Source: Escherichia coli (lineage in GTDB: Bacteria > Pseudomonadota > Gammaproteobacteria > Enterobacterales > Enterobacteriaceae). From it: a stretch of 64,000 nt of DNA. The notes under the pieces are model-generated. The model did not search any database, was not told the origin of the DNA, and was given only the letters and a program-made list of their open reading frames with translations. The translations under genes were made by a program, and so were the position numbers. Positions 717 through 12,189 of the stretch are shown here, one piece after another. The stretch lies in the NCBI RefSeq assembly GCF_024502345.1, contig NZ_JALDNN010000001.1. One strand, given 5' to 3'. Each line of letters starts with the position of its first letter. Within the stretch, counting starts at the first letter, position 1.

Positions 717-2116
717 ACTTCTCTCTGTAAATCCCGTTCCAGCGGTAACTCAACTGTAATGCTTACCCCGCCAAAAGGCGAATGGGCAGCAATAATGCGG
801 CCATTATGTGCTTCAACAATGTTCAGGCAAATCGCCAGCCCCAGCCCGGAACCGCCGCTGGCACGGTTGCGGGAACCTTCGGTGCGATAAAAACGTTCAA
901 ACAATTTTTGTAGCTGATCGTCACTGACACCTGGCGCACTGTCGGCAAAGGTCAGGCGCACCGTTTTGTCGTGTTGCTCGGCAGAGATTTTCAGGCTGCC
1001 GCCGCTGTCAGTGTAGCGCAGGCTGTTTTCAAGTAAGTTATTGAATAACTGCATTAAACGGTCGCGATCGCCAAATACGGTAATACTGTCTGGCAGGGAA
1101 AATTGCAGTTTCAGGCCACGGCTGGCGAATCGTTCGCGAAATGCGCCTCCCGCCACTTCCAGCAGTGGGATCAAATCTACCGGTGCTTTTTGATAGGCGA
1201 GAGCGCCTTCATCAGACATCGACAACTGATGGAGATCGTCAACCAGTTTGGTCAGTGTACCGACCTCCGCCTGTAAAGACGCCACCGTCTCCGGCGTGAA
1301 TTTACGCACGCCATCCTGAATGGCTTCCAGTTCACCGCGCAGCACCGCTAATGGCGTACGCAGTTCGTGAGAAATATCGGCCATAAAATCGCGCCGCATT
1401 TGCTGGTTTTTCTCCAGCGTGCTGGCAAGCTGGTTGAAGTCTTGCGCCAGTTTGCCCAGTTCATCTTCACTGGTGGGCGTTACGCGGGTAGTGAAATCGC
1501 CCGCCGCCAGTTTGTGCGTGCCGTCCACCAGCCGTTTGACCGGGGCCAAAAGGCCACGCGCCAGCAGAAAGGTGGCGAGCGCCGCGAGTAACGTTGCCAG
1601 GGCGACAATCAGCCAGCTGGTTTGCCGCTGTTGTTTATCGAAATTGATATCAGTATTGCGGGTCAGCCGCTCAACGGGGGAGGCAATCACCGCGCCCACT
1701 TCCGCACCGTTGACCAGAATGGGTCGCCGTGTACCGTCAGGTGGAATCGGCGCTCGCGGACCAACCAGCACCTTGTTGTTTTGATCAACCACCCAGAACT
1801 GAGTACGCCAGCCGTGTGGTGGCATACCCGGGCCGGGTTTATCTTCCGAATTATCGTGTTCAAATGAACGCAGGATCTGAAAGACAAAACGATCATTGTT
1901 GCGCAGGAAGCGCCAGTTGCCATGCTGCGCATACTGCTCGCCAAGCGCATCACTTAACAGTTGTAATCGCTGTTCATTACCATGCTTGATGTAATCAATA
2001 AAGCCACGCTCAAAACTGATACGCACCGCCCAGTGCATACTGATCAGCAAGACAATGCAGGTGGCGAAAATCGCCAGAAACAGTTTGCCGGTAATACCGG
2101 GTCGCCAGAACTTCAT
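713..2116 (-). CDS. baeS: BaeS sensor histidine kinase
   Basis: 467-aa ORF with HAMP and HisKA ([10 protein letters not shown]) plus HATPase regions; expected length and position downstream of mdtD. Confidence 0.95.
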
Positions 2117-3528
2117 TGCGCGCTCCTTTTTCGCCGCGAAATAGCTACATTTTGATGCGTATCGTTCGGCACTCTGGCAAAGATGAACGCCGGAAGGGCG
2201 ATGATAAACGCCATGCTAAGCCAGGTGTACATAAAGACGGTTTGTGTGGTGCCGCTGTCGACGCTGACATGCTGCGAACCAAAAAGTCCCAGCAACAGCC
2301 CGGCGATGGTGACGCCGATACTCATCGACAATTGCATAATCATCGACAGCAGACTGTTGCCGCTGCTCGCCAGATTGTCCGGGAGATCTTTCAGCGTCAG
2401 GGTGTTCATGGAGGAGAAACGGGTCGAGTTGACCATCCCTTGTAAAAACAGGACGAACGGCAAAACGTAGTACCAGCCCAACAGAGCGGTAGTCATAAAC
2501 AACAGGGTGACCAGCGACAGACCCTGCGTGGTCGCTACCAGTACCCGACGATAACCAAAGCGATTCACCACCTGTACCACAATTCGCTTCATTCCCATGC
2601 TGCCAAGCACCATCGGGATCATCATCAGTCCGGCATGAAACGGTGAGAAGCCAAGGCCAATTTGCAGGAAAACTGGTGTCATAAAGGGCAACATGCCGCT
2701 ACCGATACGTCCGGCAAAGCTCCCCGCCAGGCCCAGCGAAAAGGTACGAGTACGGAACAGTTTCAGACTGAACAGGGCGCGGTTGTTATTTCTGGCGTGC
2801 AGCAGATAAAGCACCAGTGCCACCACACCAACTGCGACCAGGCCAGCAATCGCCAGCGGCGATAAACCTGTACCTTTACTGCCGTCCAGCGCCAGGGTTA
2901 ATACCGCCATGCCAACCGCCAGCAATAAAAAGCCGGAAAGATCAAAGCGCCGCGTCTGCATGGTGTAGTTCGGCATTAACATCAATGTGGCGATCGCACC
3001 GATAATCCCCACCGGAATGTTGATCAAAAAGATCCAGTGCCACGACGCGTACTCCACCAGCAGACCGCCGAGCGCCGGACCGAGCAGCGGACCGACCTGA
3101 CCGGGTAACGTGACAAAGGTCATCGCCGCCATATACTGCTCGCGCGGTACGATTTTCATCACCGTCAATCTGCCGACCGGCACCATCATCGCGCCGCCAA
3201 CGCCCTGTAACGCGCGTGCCAGCAACAATTCGTTCAGCGTGCCGGAAAGCGCGCAAAACAGTGAACCGAGAGTAAACAGCACGATAGCGGTAAAGAAAAT
3301 ATTGCGCACGCCGACTTTGTCCGCCAGCCAGCCGCTGGCGGGCAGCATCACCGCCACGGTCAGCACATAAGAGACAATGACCATGTGCATATGCAACGGA
3401 CTTTCCCCGAGGCTTTGCGCCATTGAGGGAAGGGCGGTGTTTACGATGGTGGTATCCAGCGACTGCATAAAGAAGCCGAAAGCCACAATCCACAATTGCC
3501 AACGGGTGCTGTCGGGAAGATCAGTCAT
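2113..3528 (-). CDS. mdtD: MFS transporter MdtD
   Basis: 471-aa multi-TM ORF; 4-bp overlap with baeS; last gene of mdtABCD. Confidence 0.93.
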
Positions 3529-6500
3529 TTACTCGGTTACCGTTTGTTTAGGTTTACGCGAAAAACGCAGCCGTAGACGGTCGAAAAAGAGATACACCAC
3601 CGGCGTGGTGTACAGCGTCAGGAGCTGACTCATTACCAGACCGCCGACAATGGTGATCCCCAAGGGTTGCCGCAGCTCCGAGCCGTCACCGCCCGACAAC
3701 ACCAGCGGCAGCGCGCCAAACAGCGCCGCCAGGGTAGTCATCATAATCGGGCGAAAACGCAGCAGACAGGCCTGGAAAATAGCTTCCTTCGGCGTCAGGT
3801 TACCGTGCCGTTGGGCTTCAAGCGCAAAATCGACCATCATAATGGCGTTTTTCTTCACAATGCCGATTAATAGCATGATCCCTATCAGGGCGATTAGGCT
3901 GAACGGGGCATTGAACAGCTCCAGCGCCAGCAGCGCTCCAACGCCCGCCGAGGGCAGGGTGGAGAGAATCGTCAGCGGATGTACGTAACTCTCGTAAAGG
4001 ATACCCAGCACGATATACACCGTGGCGATGGCGGCGATAATCAGGAGCACCTGTGAGTTCATCGTCTCCTGGAACACCTGCGCCGTGCCGGCAAAACTGC
4101 CGCGCACCGTCGAAGGCACACCAAGCTGGGTCATTGCGCGATCGATCGCCGCACTGGCGTCCGAGAGCGATTTTCCGGTCGGCAGGTTGAACGAGATGGT
4201 CGAGGCTGCCGATAATCCCTGATGATTCACCGATAGTGGGGCATTCGCCGGTTGCCATTTAGCGAAATACGACAGCGGGATCGCTTTTCCTTCGTTATTG
4301 ATAACGAACATTTTTTCTAGCGCGCTGATGTCCTGGGTATAGCGCGGATCTACTTCCATCACCACTTTATACTGGTTCATCGGCTGGTAAATGGTCGAGA
4401 TTTGCCGCTGACCGAAGGCGTTATTTAACAGGCTGTTGGCGGCCTGTACGTCGATTCCCAGCCGTGCCATGGTGTCGCGGTCGTAAACCAGATTCATCTC
4501 CGCGCCGTTATCCTGCTGATCGGAGTTCACGTCCGCTAGTTCCGGCAATGTCGCCAGTTTTTTGCGGATTTTCGGCTCCCATTCGCGCAGTGCCGCCAGG
4601 TCGTCGGATAACAACGTGTACTGATAACTGGCGTTAGACTGACGTCCGCCAACGCGAATATCCTGTACCGCCATCAGGAACAGATTCGCCCCCGGTTCTT
4701 TCGCCAGCTTCACCCGCAGACGGTCGATAATTTGCTGCGCCGTTTCGCTGCGTTCGTCGCGTGGCTTGAGGGTGATAAACATCATCCCACTGTTAACTGG
4801 TGAACCGCCGGTAAAGCCGGTGACATTATCCACTGCCGGATCGTCACGGATAATTTTCATAAAATCCTGCAATTTGCCGCGCATCGCCTGAAACGAAATA
4901 CTCTGATCCGCCTGTATCCCGCCCATCAACACGCCAGTGTCCTGCTCCGGGAAGAAGGTTTTCGGGATCGAGATATACAGCCAGATATTCAAAGCAATGG
5001 TGCCAAGCAGCACCACGCCCACCAGACGGGTATGATTGAGCACCCATTTCAGCGACTTACCATAGCCTTGTTGCAGGGCTACCAACATTCGACCAAAACC
5101 ACGCAGTCGCTTTTGCTCGCGCGGCTTGCTGGCTTTCAGCATCCAGCCACACATCATCGGCGTTAATGTCAGAGAAACCAGCAACGAAATACCAATGGCG
5201 ACAGAAAGCGTCACGGCAAACTCGCGTAACAGTCGGCCCGGCAATCCGCCCATCAACAGCAGCGGCAGGAACACCGCCACCAGTGACAGACTCATCGACA
5301 GCACCGTAAAACCGACTTCGCGAGTACCTTGCAGTGCGGCTTGCAACGGTTTCATTCCCGCTTCCAGATGACGTGCAATGTTTTCCAGCACCACGATGGC
5401 GTCATCCACCACGAAACCAGTAGCGATGGTGAGCGCCATTAACGAAAGGTTATTGAGGCTGAATCCGCACAGGTACATCGCCGCAAACGTACCAATCAGC
5501 GAAACCGGCACCGCAACGGCGGGAATAATAGTGGCGCGACCCGAGCGTAGGAATAAAAACACCACCAGAATCACCAGCGCCACCGAGATAATCAGCGTTT
5601 GCTCGACTTCTTCCAGCGAGGCGCGAATGGTGGGGGAGCGATCCTGGGCAATTTGCAGATCAATCGCCGCCGGAATGGTTTCCTGCAACTCCGGTAATTT
5701 TGCCCGGATGCTGTCAACCGTCTGGATAATATTGGCTTCCGGCAGCTTGCGGATCATCAGCAAAATAGCCGGTTTGGCGTTGGTCATCCCGGCGTTGCGC
5801 ACATCCTGCACTGAGTCGGTCACCGTCGCCACATCACCCAGACGAACCGCGCCGCCGTTGTTGTAATGAATAATCAACGGCTGATATTCAGCGGCGGTTT
5901 TTAGCTCATCATTGGTCTGGATCTGCCAGCGGTGAGTGCCATCTTCCAGCGCCCCCTGCGGTTTACGCACGTTGGCATTGCTGATGGCAGTGCGTACGTC
6001 GTCCAGCGACACGCCCTGATTAAACAGCGCCTGCGGGTTCAGCCCGACGCGCACGGCGGGCAGCGAGCTGCCGCCGACATCGACATCACCGACACCGTCG
6101 ATTTGCGAAATCGTCGGAGCCAGCTGCGTCGAGGCGAAATCGTACAGTTCACCCTGCGAATAAGTATCGGATGTCAGCGTGAGGATCATAATTGGCGCAT
6201 CCGACGGGTTCGCTTTGCGATAGGTCGGACGGCTGGGCATCCCGCTGGGCAGCAAACTTTGTGCAGCGTTGATCGCCGCCTGCACATCGCGCGCCGCGCC
6301 GTTGATATCCCGGTCAAAATCAAACTGCAAAATAATACGCGTGCTGCCGAGCGAACTGCTGGAGGTCATTTCACTGACTCCGGCAATGCGCCCAAGTGAG
6401 CGCTCCAGCGGCGTGGCAACGGAAGACGCCATTGTTTCTGGTGACGCACCGGGCAGCGAGGCGCTGACCATAATCACTGGAAAATCGACCTGCGGCAGCG

Positions 6501-6606
6501 GGGCGACCGGCAGCATACGGAAGCCCAGTATGCCGCACAGGGTAATGGCAACCGACAGTAAAATCGTCGCCACCGGGCGGTAAATGAAGAGGGCAAAAAA
6601 CTTCAC
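3529..6606 (-). CDS. mdtC: RND efflux pump subunit MdtC
   Basis: 1025-aa ORF, AcrB/RND family, paralogous to adjacent MdtB. Confidence 0.95.
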
Positions 6607-9600
6607 TTACGCCTCCTCTTCATGACGGGCAAAGCGGCTTTTGGTCCACAATGCCAGGCGGTCGAACAGCAAATAAATCACCGGCGTGGTAAACAGCGTC
6701 AGCACCTGGCTGATAATCAGACCGCCGACCATGCCGATACCTAACGGACGACGCAGTTCCGCGCCGACCCCGGTACTCAACATCAGCGGCAGCGCGCCAA
6801 GCAGAGCCGCCAGAGTGGTCATCAGGATCGGACGAAAACGCAACAGACAAGCCTGGTAGATTGCCTCGCGCGGCGACATGCCTTGCTCGCGCTCGGCAGC
6901 CAGCGCGAAGTCGATCATCATGATGGCGTTCTTCTTCACGATACCGATCAGCAAAATAATGCCGATAATCGCAATCACATCCAGTTCGCTACCAGCAATC
7001 AGCAACGCCAGCAGTGCGCCAACCCCTGCGGTGGGTAGCGTCGAGAGAATGGTGATCGGGTGAATAAAGCTCTCGTACAGAATGCCGAGCACGATATACA
7101 TCGCCACCACCGCCGCGACAATCAGCCAGACAGTGCTGCCCAGCGCCGACTGGAAGGCGAGGGTGCTGCCCTGGAACTGCGTGGTGATATCCACCGGCAG
7201 ATTCAGCGTCTTTTCGGTGTCCATAATCGCCTGCACCGCATCGCCCAGCGAATAGTTATCCGGCACGTTAAAGGAGATGGTCGTTACCGGGAACTGATCC
7301 AGATGGTTGATGGAGAGCGGCGCAAAACGCTGCTCAATTTTGGCAATTGAGCTTAACGGCACCACGCCACCATCGCTGCTGGTCAGGCGAATGGTATCCA
7401 GCGCCGCGAGGCCTGGGGTATTTTCGGTGTTGTGTTCCAGCACCACGCGATACTGGTTAGCCTGAGTATAAATAGTGGAAATCAGCCGCTGACCAAACGC
7501 GTTGTACAGGGCGTTATCGACATCCGCCATACTGATCCCCAGACGGCTGGCGCTGTCGCGATCAACATTGACATACGCCACCAGCCCTTTGTCCTGCCAG
7601 TCGCTGGAGACATCAGAAAGCTGTGGTAGTTGCTGGAGTTTTTCCATCAACTGTGGCACCCAGGTACTGAGCGCATCCAGTGACGTGGCCTGCAAGGTAA
7701 ACTGGTACTGGGTGCGGCTGACCTGAGTATCGATGGTCAGGTCCTGCGTTGGTTGCAGGAAGAGATCGACGCCCGGCAATTTATCCACCGCCGTTTGCAG
7801 ACGGGCGATGACTTTTTGCACCCGATCATCACGTTCATCCAGCGGTTTGAGGTTGATCTGCAAACGCGCACTGTTCAGCGACGGGTTAGTGCCATCAACG
7901 CCAACAAATGAGGTCAGACTTTGCACTGCCGGATCCTGCAAAATCACGTCCGCGACCTGGCGTTGCCGCTGGGCCATATTGGCAAAGGAGCTGGATTGCG
8001 GTGCCTGCAAAGTGCCCTGAATAATGCCGTTATCCTGTACCGGGAAGAAACCTTTCGGAATGAACACCCACAATAGAACGCTAAGCAGCAGCGTGCTGAG
8101 CGCCACGCTTAAGGTCAGCCACGGATGATTCAGCACTTTCGCCAGTCCACGACCATAGGCGGCGATTATCTTGTCGAACATTTTTTCCGAGGCACGGGAG
8201 AAGCGGTTCTGTTTACGCAACGACTCCTGGCTGAGCATCCGTGCGCACATCATCGGTGTCAGGGTTAGCGACACCACGGCTGAGATTAAAATCGCTACCG
8301 CCAGGGTAATAGCAAATTCGCGGAACAGTCGCCCGACGATATCGCCCATAAACAGCAGTGGGATCAACACCGCAATCAGCGAGAAGGTCAGCGAGATAAT
8401 GGTAAAGCCGATTTCACCTGCGCCTTTGAGCGCCGCCGCCAATGGTTTTTCGCCTTTTTCGATATAGCGGGAAATATTTTCGATCACCACGATGGCGTCA
8501 TCGACCACGAACCCGGTGGCGATAGTTAACGCCATCAGCGTCAGGTTATTGATTGAAAAATCGAGAAACACCATGACCGCGAAGGTGCCGATTAACGACA
8601 GCGGCACTGCGACGCCGGGAATGATGGTCGCCGGAATATTGCGCAAAAACAGGTAGATAATCATGACTACCAGCGCGATAGCCATCATCAATTCAAACTG
8701 AGTATCATCGACGGATGCGCGGATATTGGTGGTACGGTCAGAAAGTACCGTCACCTTCACCGATTTCGGCAGACTCTCGGTGAGCTGTGGCAGCATCTGC
8801 CGGATGCTGTCGGCGGTGGAGATAATGTTAGCACCGGGCTGGCGCTGAACATTCATCACAATGGCCTGTTCTTTGTTCGCCCATGCGCCGAGCCAGCTGT
8901 TTTCTGCACCTTGCTCTACGGTTGCGACATCGCCCAGACGAATCGGCGCGCCGTTCTGGTAGGCGATAATCAACTGGCGATATTCTTCCGCAGATTGCAT
9001 TTGGTCATTCGCGGAAAGCGTAACCGCGCGGGAAGGGCCGTCGAGGCTACCTTTTGCCGAGTTAACGTTAGCGCCGGTAATGGCGGTGCGCACGGTTTCG
9101 CTGGTCAGGCCGAGGGCGGCAATCGCCTGAGCGTTAAGTTTGACGCGAACAGCCGGACGCTGGCCGCCGGAAAGCGTCACCAGGCCGACGCCGGAAATCT
9201 GCGAGATTTTCTGCGCGACGCGGGTTTCCACCATATCTTCCACTTGCGTCATCGGCATGGCTGTTGAGGTGACGGCGAGCGTCATGATCGGCGGATCTGC
9301 CGGGTTCACTTTGCTGTAAACCGGCGGGTTAGGCAGATCGCTCGGCAACAAGTTGGTCGCAGCGTTAATCGCGGCCTGCACTTCCTGCTCGGCGACATCG
9401 AGCGGTAATGTTAGCTGGAACTGTAAAGTGATAACTGACGCACCGCCGGAACTTTGCGACGACATCTGTTTCAGGCCAGACATCTGCCCGAACTGGCGTT
9501 CGAGCGGCGCGGTAACGGCAGAGGTCATGACATCCGGGCTCGCACCTGGGTAGAGCGTGACCACCTGAATGGTCGGATAGTCCACTTCCGGCAGCGCCGA

Positions 9601-9729
9601 AACGGGCAGGGCGCGATAACCGATAATCCCGGCGAGTAAGATCGCCACCATCAGCAGCGTGGTGGCCACAGGACGCATAATAAACAGGCGCGACGGGCCG
9701 CCTGTGCTGCCCGGGGGTAACACCTGCAT
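6607..9729 (-). CDS. mdtB: RND efflux pump subunit MdtB
   Basis: 1040-aa ORF, AcrB/RND family; directly abuts mdtC. Confidence 0.95.
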
Positions 9730-10976
9730 CAGGAGCGAGCTCCTTTTTTCGCGTATTCGCGGCTGGTGGCTTTCTCTTCCGGAGTGGTGGCGCTCTGGGC
9801 TTCCACCACTTCCACTTTCGCCCCTTCGGTCAGGCGATCAATGCCGTCTGTCACCACGCGATCGCCCGCAGAAATACCTGCGCGGATCACCACTTTCTGA
9901 CTGTCCTGAATGCCCGGCGTCACCAGATGTTTGCTGACCTTGTTTTCGCTATTCAGCACCCAGACAAAATGGCCTTCATTGCCCATTTGCAGGGCGGCGG
10001 TGGGGATCACTACGGCGTTTTGTTCGGTGTCGACTAACATGCGCGCGTTAACAAACTGATTGGGAAACAGCGCATCATCCTGATTATTAAAGCGTGCTTT
10101 CACTTTAATCGTACCGGTAGTGGCATCGATTTGGTTATCGAGACTTAACAGCGTGCCTTCACTTAATTTCTTCGAGTTGGTGCGATCCCAGGCTTCTACC
10201 ACCAGCGGTTTTCCGGCTTTTTGCGCCTGCACGACGGTAGCGATATCGCTTTCCGGCAGGGTAAAGAGCAAATCGATAGGATGCGTCTGGGTGATCACCA
10301 CGATCCCGGTGGTATCACCACTGGAGATTTGGTTACCAACATCAACCTGCTTGAGACCAACGCGACCATCGACTGGTGCGGTAATACGGCTCCAGTCGAG
10401 TTGCAGCTGCGCGCTGGCGACGCTTGCTTCATCAGCCTTAATGGTGCCTTCGGTTTCACTGACCAGCGCCTGTTGGGCATCCAGCTCCTGGCGGGAGACG
10501 AGATTGGTTTTTGCCAGTTGCTGATAACGCGCCAGATCACGGCGGGCGTTGGTAAGCGTGGCTTTATCTTTTGCCAGTTGGCCCTGGGCTTGTGCTAATG
10601 CAACTTTGAACTGGCTGGGGTCAATTTCTGCCAGTAAATCGCCTGCTTTGACCTGCTGGCCTTCCTGGAAATGTAACGCCATCAGTTGACCGTCCACGCG
10701 GCTGCGCACCGTAACAGTATTAGCAGCGGTAATGGTGCCAAGCCCGGTGAGGTAACGCGGAACTGCCTGTTCTACGGCGGTCGCCGCCTGAACCGGGGCT
10801 AATGGGCCGGAACGCATACCACGGCGACCACCCGCTGGCGATTGCTGCGCTTGTTTCGTCGCCCCTGGGGCTGCACTCTGGGAGTCATTGCGGCCTTGCC
10901 AGAACCAGAATGCGGCGATGGCGGCGATAACCACCACGATTACGATTACCCAACGGGATTTATAACTGCCTTTCAT
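9729..10976 (-). CDS. mdtA: Membrane fusion protein MdtA
   Basis: Start set at internal ATG ([16 protein letters not shown]...) giving 415 aa; the track ORF extends 49 codons further upstream, which I treat as spurious. 1-nt overlap with mdtB. Confidence 0.9.
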
Positions 10977-11029
10977 CGTTAAGAGTTTCTCTTCCTGAAA
11001 CGTTTCGCGGAATGATACTAGTGTAGCCA

Positions 11030-11047
11030 GCCAATAAGGGAGAAAAA
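11030..11047 (-). promoter_or_regulatory. Candidate BaeR binding box upstream of mdtA
   Basis: Minus-strand sequence TTTTTCTCCCTTATTGGC matches the BaeR consensus I recall (TTTTTCTCCATDATTGGC) at 16 of 18 positions, about 55 bp upstream of the mdtA start. Confidence 0.55.
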
Positions 11048-11194
11048 TGGAGGAATTATGAAACACTATCGGGAATCGTCTGAATGGCGGGCACATTTGC
11101 GAGCACGCATCCAGTAATAACACAGGAAACTATTTTATCTACGCGTTAGCGATAGACTGCTTGCATGGCGAAAGGAGGTAAGCCGACGATTTCA

Positions 11195-11340
11195 GCGGGA
11201 CGCTGAAACGGGAAAGCCCCTCCCGAGGAAGGGGCCATAAATAAGGAAAGGGTCATGATGAAGATACTCATCATCGTGGTGCTCTTAGTGATTAGCTACC
11301 CAGCATACTAAGACTACCAGGGCGGGGGAAACCCCGCTCT
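11195..11340 (-). ncRNA. Sib-type antisense antitoxin RNA, copy 1 (ends approximate)
   Basis: Inferred from Sib/Ibs organisation (Sib is fully antisense to ibs); a hairpin followed by a T-rich tract on the minus strand lies near 11200-11245. Ends not determinable from sequence alone. Confidence 0.4.
11255..11311 (+). CDS. Ibs-family hydrophobic toxin peptide, 18 aa (MMKILIIVVLLVISYPAY)
   Basis: Small ORF with RBS ggaaagggtc 5 nt upstream; Ibs signature MMK + hydrophobic core + PAY end. Confidence 0.75.
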   Translation: MMKILIIVVLLVISYPAY

Positions 11341-11522
11341 ACCCTCACTCCTGAAAGTATGCCTTCACGTTCAGAATGTCAATCCGCAGGCTTTGCAGTC
11401 TGCGATCCTGCCAGCAAATATTCTTTGCGAGACGTTACGCAATAATCACAGAGGAAACTATTTTGTTCACGCGTTAGCGATAGACTGAATTCAGGGCGAA
11501 AGGAGGTAAGCCGACGATTTCA

Positions 11523-11668
11523 GCGGGACGCTGAAACGGGAAAGCCCCTCCCGAGGAAGGGGCCTTAAATAAGGAAAGGGTCATGATGAAGTGGATCATC
11601 ATCGTGGTGCTCTTAGTCATAAGCTTCCCGGCTTACTAAGACTACCAGGGCGGGGGAAACCCCGCTCT
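11523..11668 (-). ncRNA. Sib-type antisense antitoxin RNA, copy 2 (ends approximate)
   Basis: Same reasoning as copy 1, shifted by one repeat unit. Confidence 0.4.
11583..11639 (+). CDS. Ibs-family hydrophobic toxin peptide, 18 aa (MMKWIIIVVLLVISFPAY)
   Basis: Second repeat unit, same RBS context; Trp at position 4. Confidence 0.75.
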   Translation: MMKWIIIVVLLVISFPAY

Positions 11669-11850
11669 ACCCTCACTCCTGAAAGTATGCCTTCACGATA
11701 AGATTGTCAATCTGCAGGCTTTGCAGTCTGCGATCCTGCCAGCAAATATTCTTTGCGAGACGTTACGCAATAATCACACTGGAAACTATTTTATCCGCAA
11801 GTCAGCGATAGACTGCATGCATGGCGAAAGGAGGTAAGCCGACGATTTCA

Positions 11851-11996
11851 GCGGGATGCTGAAACGGGAAAGCCCCTCCCGAGGAAGGGGCCTTAAATAA
11901 GAAAAGGGTTATGATGAAGCACGTCATCATACTGGTGATACTCTTAGTGATTAGCTTCCAGGCTTACTAAGAACACCAGGGGGAGGGGAAACCTCT
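11851..11996 (-). ncRNA. Sib-type antisense antitoxin RNA, copy 3 (ends approximate)
   Basis: Same reasoning as copy 1. Confidence 0.4.
11911..11970 (+). CDS. Ibs-family hydrophobic toxin peptide, 19 aa (MMKHVIILVILLVISFQAY)
   Basis: Third repeat unit; closest to the K-12 IbsA sequence as I recall it. Confidence 0.75.
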   Translation: MMKHVIILVILLVISFQAY

Positions 11997-12189
11997 CCCT
12001 AACCCTCACTCCTGAAATTATGTCACTCCGCCCTTAGTGTCAATCGACGGCTCTCCGTTCTTGCGAGGCGAATAGCAAAATTTTCTGCGCCGCCGGGACT
12101 AATTCTGAAAGTTTCTTCGTTTGCTCTTATTTCATTATTGCAGTCGGTATGATACCGGACCTCAATAATTCTCTAAGAAAGGATTTCTT

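Follow-up and report, generated by a model that had tools for sequence, protein, structure and literature searches.

At the pho-box promoters controlled by PhoB, activation of the OmpR/PhoB-family type relies on a regulator site that stands in place of the -35 hexamer. The operator of the Escherichia coli mdtA promoter resembles the pho box in several respects, being paired with a winged-helix regulator (BaeR), built of direct repeats at intervals of ~10 to 11 bp, and combined with a -10 element that has no -35 partner. However, PhoB and BaeR differ in their recognition sequences, and mdtA has two overlapping pairs of -10 element and start site. A contact between BaeR and region 4 of sigma-70 may be supposed by analogy with PhoB.

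Two other regulators of the OmpR family that act on RND efflux operons resemble BaeR in the layout of their sites, which are tandem direct CTCCA(C/T) cores. According to PMC10052836, AdeR, which acts on adeABC of Acinetobacter, binds AAGTGTGGAG-N-AAGTGTGGAG (reverse complement, CTCCACACTT), and DzrR, which acts on desAB of Dickeya, binds two direct CTCCAT repeats. These systems belong to other organisms and other operons than mdtA, and AdeR recognizes two exact copies of a 10-mer separated by 1 nt, whereas the repeats at mdtA are imperfect and agree with the core at 6/6, 5/6, and 4/6 positions.

For BaeR itself, two consensus sequences have been published. The first, TTTTTCTCCATDATTGGC, is attributed to Nishino et al. 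2005 in PMC3799227 and PMC3915751, and the second, TCTNCANAA, is attributed to Yamamoto et al. 2008 in PMC3799227; a CTNCA element is common to both (PMC3799227). We rebuilt the consensus from the K-12 sites of spy (TTTTTCTCCATAATTGGC), acrD (TTTTTCTCCACGATTGGC), and mdtA (TTTTTCTCCCTTATTGGC), and the published TTTTTCTCCATDATTGGC is the exact majority of these three E. coli sites. The spy and acrD boxes are read by the same regulator as the mdtA box, agree with it at the same 15/18 positions, carry the CTNCA/CTCCAT core, and are alike in having further in-phase copies of that core 10 to 11 or 22 bp upstream. The mdtA box abuts its -10 region (-42 to -25), whereas the spy box lies 156 nt upstream of the ATG and, unlike that of mdtA, is set apart from the core promoter by a CpxR-like site. 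A perfect CTCCAT is found just upstream of the mdtA 18-mer, and the mdtA 18-mer itself carries CTCCCT. The mdtA BaeR box and the BaeR-dependent autoregulation of the operon are thus already known, and we describe here how they are laid out in one E. coli genome and how they compare across related genera.

The BaeR box of the mdtABCD-baeSR operon

The window, by which we mean the whole stretch of 64,000 nucleotides that was analyzed, contains the operon on its minus strand. The first gene, mdtA (9729 to 10976), scored 723 bits on NCBIfam model NF008589 and has the same start in the RefSeq annotation. It is followed by mdtB (6607 to 9729), mdtC (3529 to 6606), mdtD (2113 to 3528), and baeS (713 to 2116), each on the minus strand and each above the cut-off of an NCBIfam equivalog or subfamily model. 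The last gene of the operon, baeR, extends from 716 on the minus strand and is cut by the left edge of the window; its NCBIfam score is above the cut-off, and its 238 readable residues match positions 5 to 233 of the 235-position BaeR model. The product scored 448 bits on the BaeR equivalog model and also scored on the PhoB, OmpR, CreB, and AdeR models, profile scores that place the cognate regulator among the OmpR/PhoB-type winged-helix proteins. Because the operon includes baeR, the circuit is autoregulatory.

The box region is nearly uniform within the species. A 601-bp stretch around the box was present in 5419 of 5426 genomes, with 100% identity to several complete genomes, including that of O157:H7 TR01, and a 41-bp operator segment was 100% identical in 5293 of the 5412 matching E. 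coli records. From -78 to the ATG, the window does not differ from K-12 MG1655 by any base or indel, so that K-12 coordinates transfer directly to it (K-12 coordinate x corresponds to window position 10976 + [2154016 - x]).

The BaeR box is the 18-mer TTTTTCTCCCTTATTGGC, which is the minus-strand sequence of window positions 11047 to 11030 and lies at -42 to -25 relative to the start site at 11005. The mdtA ATG (A at 10976) begins 54 bp downstream of its 3' end (11030), a measured distance that agrees with the ~55 bp given in the first-pass annotation of this DNA. That annotation had also described a near-consensus match at 16 of 18 positions. The near-consensus character holds and the count does not: the box agrees with the published TTTTTCTCCATDATTGGC at 17/18 positions, the sole mismatch being C for A at position 10, and the value of 16/18 is obtained only against the nondegenerate spy site TTTTTCTCCATAATTGGC. 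When the 64-kb window was scanned with TTTTTCTCCATDATTGGC at up to 3 mismatches, the box was the single match. The agreement is partly circular, since the mdtA site itself contributed to the three-site consensus. The noncircular part consists of the 15/18 positions common to spy, acrD, and mdtA, which are three unlinked BaeR-regulated promoters; TTTTTCTCC-NNN-ATTGGC is likewise found upstream of K-12 spy and acrD.

Published K-12 data bear directly on this DNA. ChIP-exo of K-12 BaeR yielded two peaks upstream of mdtA (PMC7657598, Data Set S2). The first, peak_5, spans K-12 positions 2153931 to 2153967 with a signal-to-noise value (S/N) of 10.96 (PMC7657598) and corresponds to window positions 11061 to 11025, so that the 18-mer lies wholly inside it. 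The second, peak_6, spans K-12 positions 2153972 to 2153998 (PMC7657598), corresponding to window positions 11020 to 10994, and takes in the -10 region together with the start sites and the beginning of the leader. In a K-12 baeR knockout under ethanol, mdtA changed by log2 -4.0 and mdtB, mdtC, mdtD (iceT), and baeS by log2 -3.4 to -4.6 (PMC7657598, Data Sets S2, S3, and S5); the baeR deletion in K-12 left operon RNA about 16-fold lower (PMC7657598). On DNA identical to that of the window, then, the box is occupied by BaeR in vivo and the gene is BaeR dependent. A gel shift of the mdtA promoter with BaeR was reportedly obtained by Baranova and Nikaido in 2002. Nothing on binding sites was found in the Erwinia MdtABC paper. 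The proposal of autoregulated baeSR-mdtABCD expression, made at first from the sequence, is borne out, with both baeS and baeR lying in the operon led by the box and K-12 operon RNA falling upon baeR knockout. We consider that the 18-mer is very probably the operator already described for BaeR at the sigma-70 promoter of E. coli mdtABCD-baeSR.

Conservation across enterobacterial mdtA promoters

A genome scan for MdtA yielded 80 loci from Escherichia, Citrobacter, Enterobacter, Klebsiella, Raoultella, Kluyvera, Lelliottia, Atlantibacter, Buttiauxella, Cedecea, and others, and the region from -130 to +15 was aligned for 79 distinct mdtA promoter sequences. Conservation along the minus strand is uneven. 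The stretch TTCAGAC..TCC.GACAGT (11085 to 11065) is conserved, and it is followed by the near-invariant TTyCATAwTTCCTCCATTTTT (11063 to 11043), which reads TTTCATAATTCCTCCATTTTT in the window and extends into the T-run of the 18-mer. The last 13 nt of that 18-mer at its 3' end, CTCCCTTATTGGC in E. coli (11042 to 11030), are variable at 0.15 to 1.0 bit. Invariance returns with T..CTAaACTAGTATCATT (11029 to 11011), which holds the -10 elements, and again in the leader, where TTCAGGAwGAGA (10999 to 10988) is invariant except at one position. Beyond Escherichia and Citrobacter, only the five leading Ts of the 18-mer are conserved; in other genera the best match to the consensus lies 10 bp further upstream, on ATTTCCTCCATTTTT, and reaches 11 to 13 of 18 positions.

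Three copies of the core repeat can be discerned in the same orientation on the minus strand, starting at 11063, 11052, and 11042, with a spacing of 11 bp from the first (R1) to the second (R2) and of 10 bp from the second to the third (R3). R1 (TTTCAT, 11063 to 11058) and R2 (CTCCAT, 11052 to 11047) both lie in the near-invariant block; R1 agrees with CTCCAT at 4 to 5 of 6 positions in nearly all 79 promoters, and R2 is CTCCAT in 74/79. R3 (CTCCCT, 11042 to 11037) lies within the 18-mer and is CTCCCT in 19/79, in Escherichia and Citrobacter only, and is otherwise near background. The ATTGGC that ends the 18-mer is retained in 4/79 mdtA promoters. Of the 80 related mdtA loci, 69 have a single YTYCAT-N5-CTCCAT, always equally far from the ATG, and CTCCAT-N4-CTCC is unique in the window, where 0.03 occurrences were expected. 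The TTTCATAATTCCTCCATTTTT block falls almost wholly within ChIP-exo peak_5, only positions 11062 and 11063 extending beyond the upstream edge at 11061; the ChIP-exo peaks are about 30 to 40 bp wide, and at that width R1-R2 and R3-ATTGGC are not separable. From the alignment, we take the TTTCATAATTCCTCCATTTTT block to be, probably, the conserved part of the BaeR operator. With CTCCCTTATTGGC at 0.15 to 1.0 bit and ATTGGC in so few promoters, the determinant conserved across the family is not the 18-mer as such. The only mildly new point is that the part of the operator conserved across the family lies just upstream of the 18-mer coordinates.

This pattern raises a real possibility, although one that we would place a little short of probable, that BaeR acts through a conserved operator formed by the upstream tandem of R1 and R2 (TTyCAT-N5-CTCCAT, 11063 to 11047), that R3 and ATTGGC form an auxiliary or third site specific to Escherichia and Citrobacter, and that the published 18-mer is a peculiarity of E. 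coli. The near-invariance of R1 and R2 set against the sparse retention of R3 and ATTGGC speaks for it, as does the upstream position of the best consensus match in distant genera, and AdeR and DzrR bind to tandem CTCCA(C/T) repeats (PMC10052836). On the other side, TTTTTCTCC-NNN-ATTGGC is common to three unlinked E. coli promoters, and the R1 region could be conserved on account of another factor, CpxR for instance, or of a distal promoter. Moreover, an upstream tandem and an 18-mer operator are compatible, since R2 is in phase with R3 and BaeR could bind to both at once.

The K-12 spy promoter supplies evidence on both sides of this question. It carries copies of TCTNCANAA that are 11 and 22 bp apart, and its distal tandem, TCTTCATAA-TC-TCTGCAAAA, has the same 11-bp layout as R1-R2, has TTCATAAT in common with the mdtA block, and falls within ChIP-exo peak_2. 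The perfect spy 18-mer (K-12 positions 1825764 to 1825781; minus strand, 765 to 782 of the spy upstream segment) lies between the BaeR ChIP-exo peaks at 1825677 to 1825711 and 1825823 to 1825843 and inside neither, and thus in no called peak, which again favors an upstream tandem. However, E. coli, Salmonella, and two Citrobacter all keep spy AATTGGCG unchanged, whereas CTCC drifts toward CTTC there, in a comparison that spans little divergence, the Spy homologue search having returned almost only Escherichia, Salmonella, and Citrobacter. Given this invariance of AATTGGCG, ATTGGC is under constraint at least in the E. coli/Salmonella/Citrobacter clade.

Start sites and the core promoter

Transcription start sites for mdtA (b2074) are available from SMRT-Cappable-seq, which lists 2153978 and 2153986 and none near 215394x (PMC6131387, Supplementary Data 2). 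The cultures used for that study were uninduced. Its table appears to be 0-based, with thrL listed at 147 for a start that we take to be 148, and the start coordinates therefore carry an uncertainty of ±1 nt. On the minus strand of the window, the first start site is at 11005 (listed at K-12 2153986, or about 2153987 if 1-based) and gives a 5' untranslated region of 29 ± 1 nt; the second is at 11013 (K-12 2153978 as listed) and gives one of 37 ± 1 nt. Both start positions are A, and they are 8 nt apart. Among the entries listed in the Cappable-seq supplement PMC4782308, none was near the locus in the coordinates of either genome version.

A -10 hexamer is suitably placed for each start. TATCAT (11012 to 11017, minus strand) occupies -12 to -7 of start 11005 and belongs to the conserved block at 11029 to 11011, and TACACT (11020 to 11025, minus strand), which is TAAACT in most genera, occupies -12 to -7 of start 11013. 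No -35 element could be recognized for either: the best match for start 11005 at spacers of 16 to 18 was 1/6, and that for start 11013 was 2/6. Relative to start 11005, the full operator spans -58 to -25 and the 18-mer alone -42 to -25. The layout is class II-like, with a placed -10 element, no recognizable -35 element, and the activator site lying over the -35 position, and -42 to -25, in the place of a -35 element, is where the site of an OmpR/PhoB-family activator that replaces that element would be expected. The distance from operator to start differs between 11005 and 11013.

From these mapped starts, the leader is short and the promoter lies directly downstream of the box. The first-pass annotation had left two options for a box so near the start codon, a short 5' untranslated region or a promoter within the first sib repeat; the published starts favor the former, and the latter is not supported, since the proximal repeat copy ends at 11096 and no mdtA start is listed there. 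A mechanically called open reading frame (9729 to 11123, minus strand, 464 amino acids) begins at GTG 11123. We rejected this GTG as the mdtA start, since transcription begins downstream of it at both mapped sites and RefSeq annotates ATG 10976.

Within the leader, the conserved block TTCAGGAAGAGA (10988 to 10999, minus strand; TTCAGGAwGAGA across genera) shows 1.8 to 2.0 bits at all but one position in the 79 promoters. It is presumably the ribosome-binding region of mdtA, and it could also be a small-RNA target or a structural element. The block stops 12 nt short of the ATG, a somewhat long spacing for a simple Shine-Dalgarno sequence.

Further upstream, three tandem 328-bp sib/ibs type I toxin-antitoxin repeats occupy 11096 to 12051, between yegL and mdtA. 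Rfam models identify three Sib RNA genes in them (11240 to 11382, 11568 to 11710, and 11896 to 12043) on the minus strand, which is that of mdtA, and RefSeq annotates three Ibs toxin genes upstream of mdtA. K-12 MG1655 has two such repeats (sibA/ibsA and sibB/ibsB). The repeat unit nearest mdtA ends at 11096, 49 bp short of the box on the upstream side, and the Sib RNA gene of that unit ends at 11240; the mdtA promoter is independent of the sib/ibs repeats.

Between the repeats and the operator lies the conserved block ATTCAGACGATTCCCGATAGT (11065 to 11085, minus strand), just upstream of the BaeR operator and outside the BaeR ChIP-exo peak. It contains a 10-bp direct repeat, TTCAGACGAT / TCCAGACAGT, in K-12 and most genera, and in the strain of the window the second copy is degraded to CCGATAGT. 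It might be the site of another response regulator or the -35 element of a distal promoter. CpxR input has been reported for mdtA. A search for the CpxR box GTAAA-N5-GTAAA with up to 2 mismatches gave no match from the ATG to 11200, and the nearest matches, at 11424 and 11752, both fall within the sib repeats.

It is improbable that the true mdtA promoter lies further upstream, with the box in the transcribed leader. Such a promoter might be TTCAGA-18-CATAAT (11084 to 11055, predicted start near 11048), the sole match of a consensus promoter scan, both hexamers of which fall in conserved blocks; alternatively, transcription might come by read-through or from a promoter of the proximal sib repeat, and the Sib RNA genes do lie on the mdtA strand. 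However, the scan gave 1 site where 1.7 were expected by chance, the SMRT-Cappable-seq starts for b2074 are only those at 2153978 and 2153986, and it is the proximal -10 elements and start sites that ChIP-exo peak_6 covers. An activator site at +1 to +18, as the box would then be, is in addition atypical for an OmpR-family activator. TTCAGA-18-CATAAT was accordingly rejected as the main promoter, being neither above chance nor supported by a start site.

That the box is a chance resemblance in AT-rich intergenic DNA, with no regulatory role, is scarcely credible: the region is T-rich and the consensus comes from only three sites with mdtA among them, but 0 of 100 shuffles gave a match to TTTTTCTCCATDATTGGC at up to 1 mismatch (the analytic chance expectation for such a match being about 3e-4 per window), BaeR occupancy in vivo and BaeR-dependent expression have been recorded on identical DNA (PMC7657598), and conservation is near-perfect in more than 5,200 E. 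coli genomes.

Proposed mode of activation and its implications

The very probable reading, in which the 18-mer is a BaeR operator of the mdtABCD-baeSR promoter, suggests the following course of events. Envelope stress, as caused by indole, metals, ethanol, or tannins, would lead the kinase BaeS to phosphorylate BaeR, and this winged-helix regulator of the OmpR/PhoB family would then bind phased CTCCAT-like direct repeats from about -58 to -25. The bound array would consist of R1 TTTCAT, R2 CTCCAT, and R3 CTCCCT, spaced by 11 and 10 bp, followed by ATTGGC; the classical 18-mer would be the promoter-proximal R3 together with the flanking T-run and ATTGGC. The operator would take the place of the absent -35 element, and BaeR would recruit or stabilize RNA polymerase on the overlapping TACACT and TATCAT elements, transcription beginning 37 and 29 nt upstream of the mdtA ATG. 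With baeS and baeR at the end of the transcript, activation of this kind would amount to positive autoregulation. The replacement of a -35 element by the activator is what the geometry of the promoter points to.

As a discovery the box itself carries little weight, the mdtA site being among the three that define the consensus. The analysis does offer a cleaner annotation of the promoter, with starts at 11005 and 11013, two -10 elements, no -35 element, and an operator at -58 to -25. It also advises caution in motif-based searches for the BaeR regulon, in that the core under conservation is the CTCCAT direct repeat immediately preceding the 18-mer: in other Enterobacteriaceae, a scan with the E. 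coli 18-mer scores only 11 to 13 of 18 positions at true mdtA operators. If the upstream tandem of R1 and R2 is indeed the functional operator, the BaeR motif would be better written as phased CTCCAT direct repeats, in the manner of AdeR and DzrR, than as TTTTTCTCCATDATTGGC.
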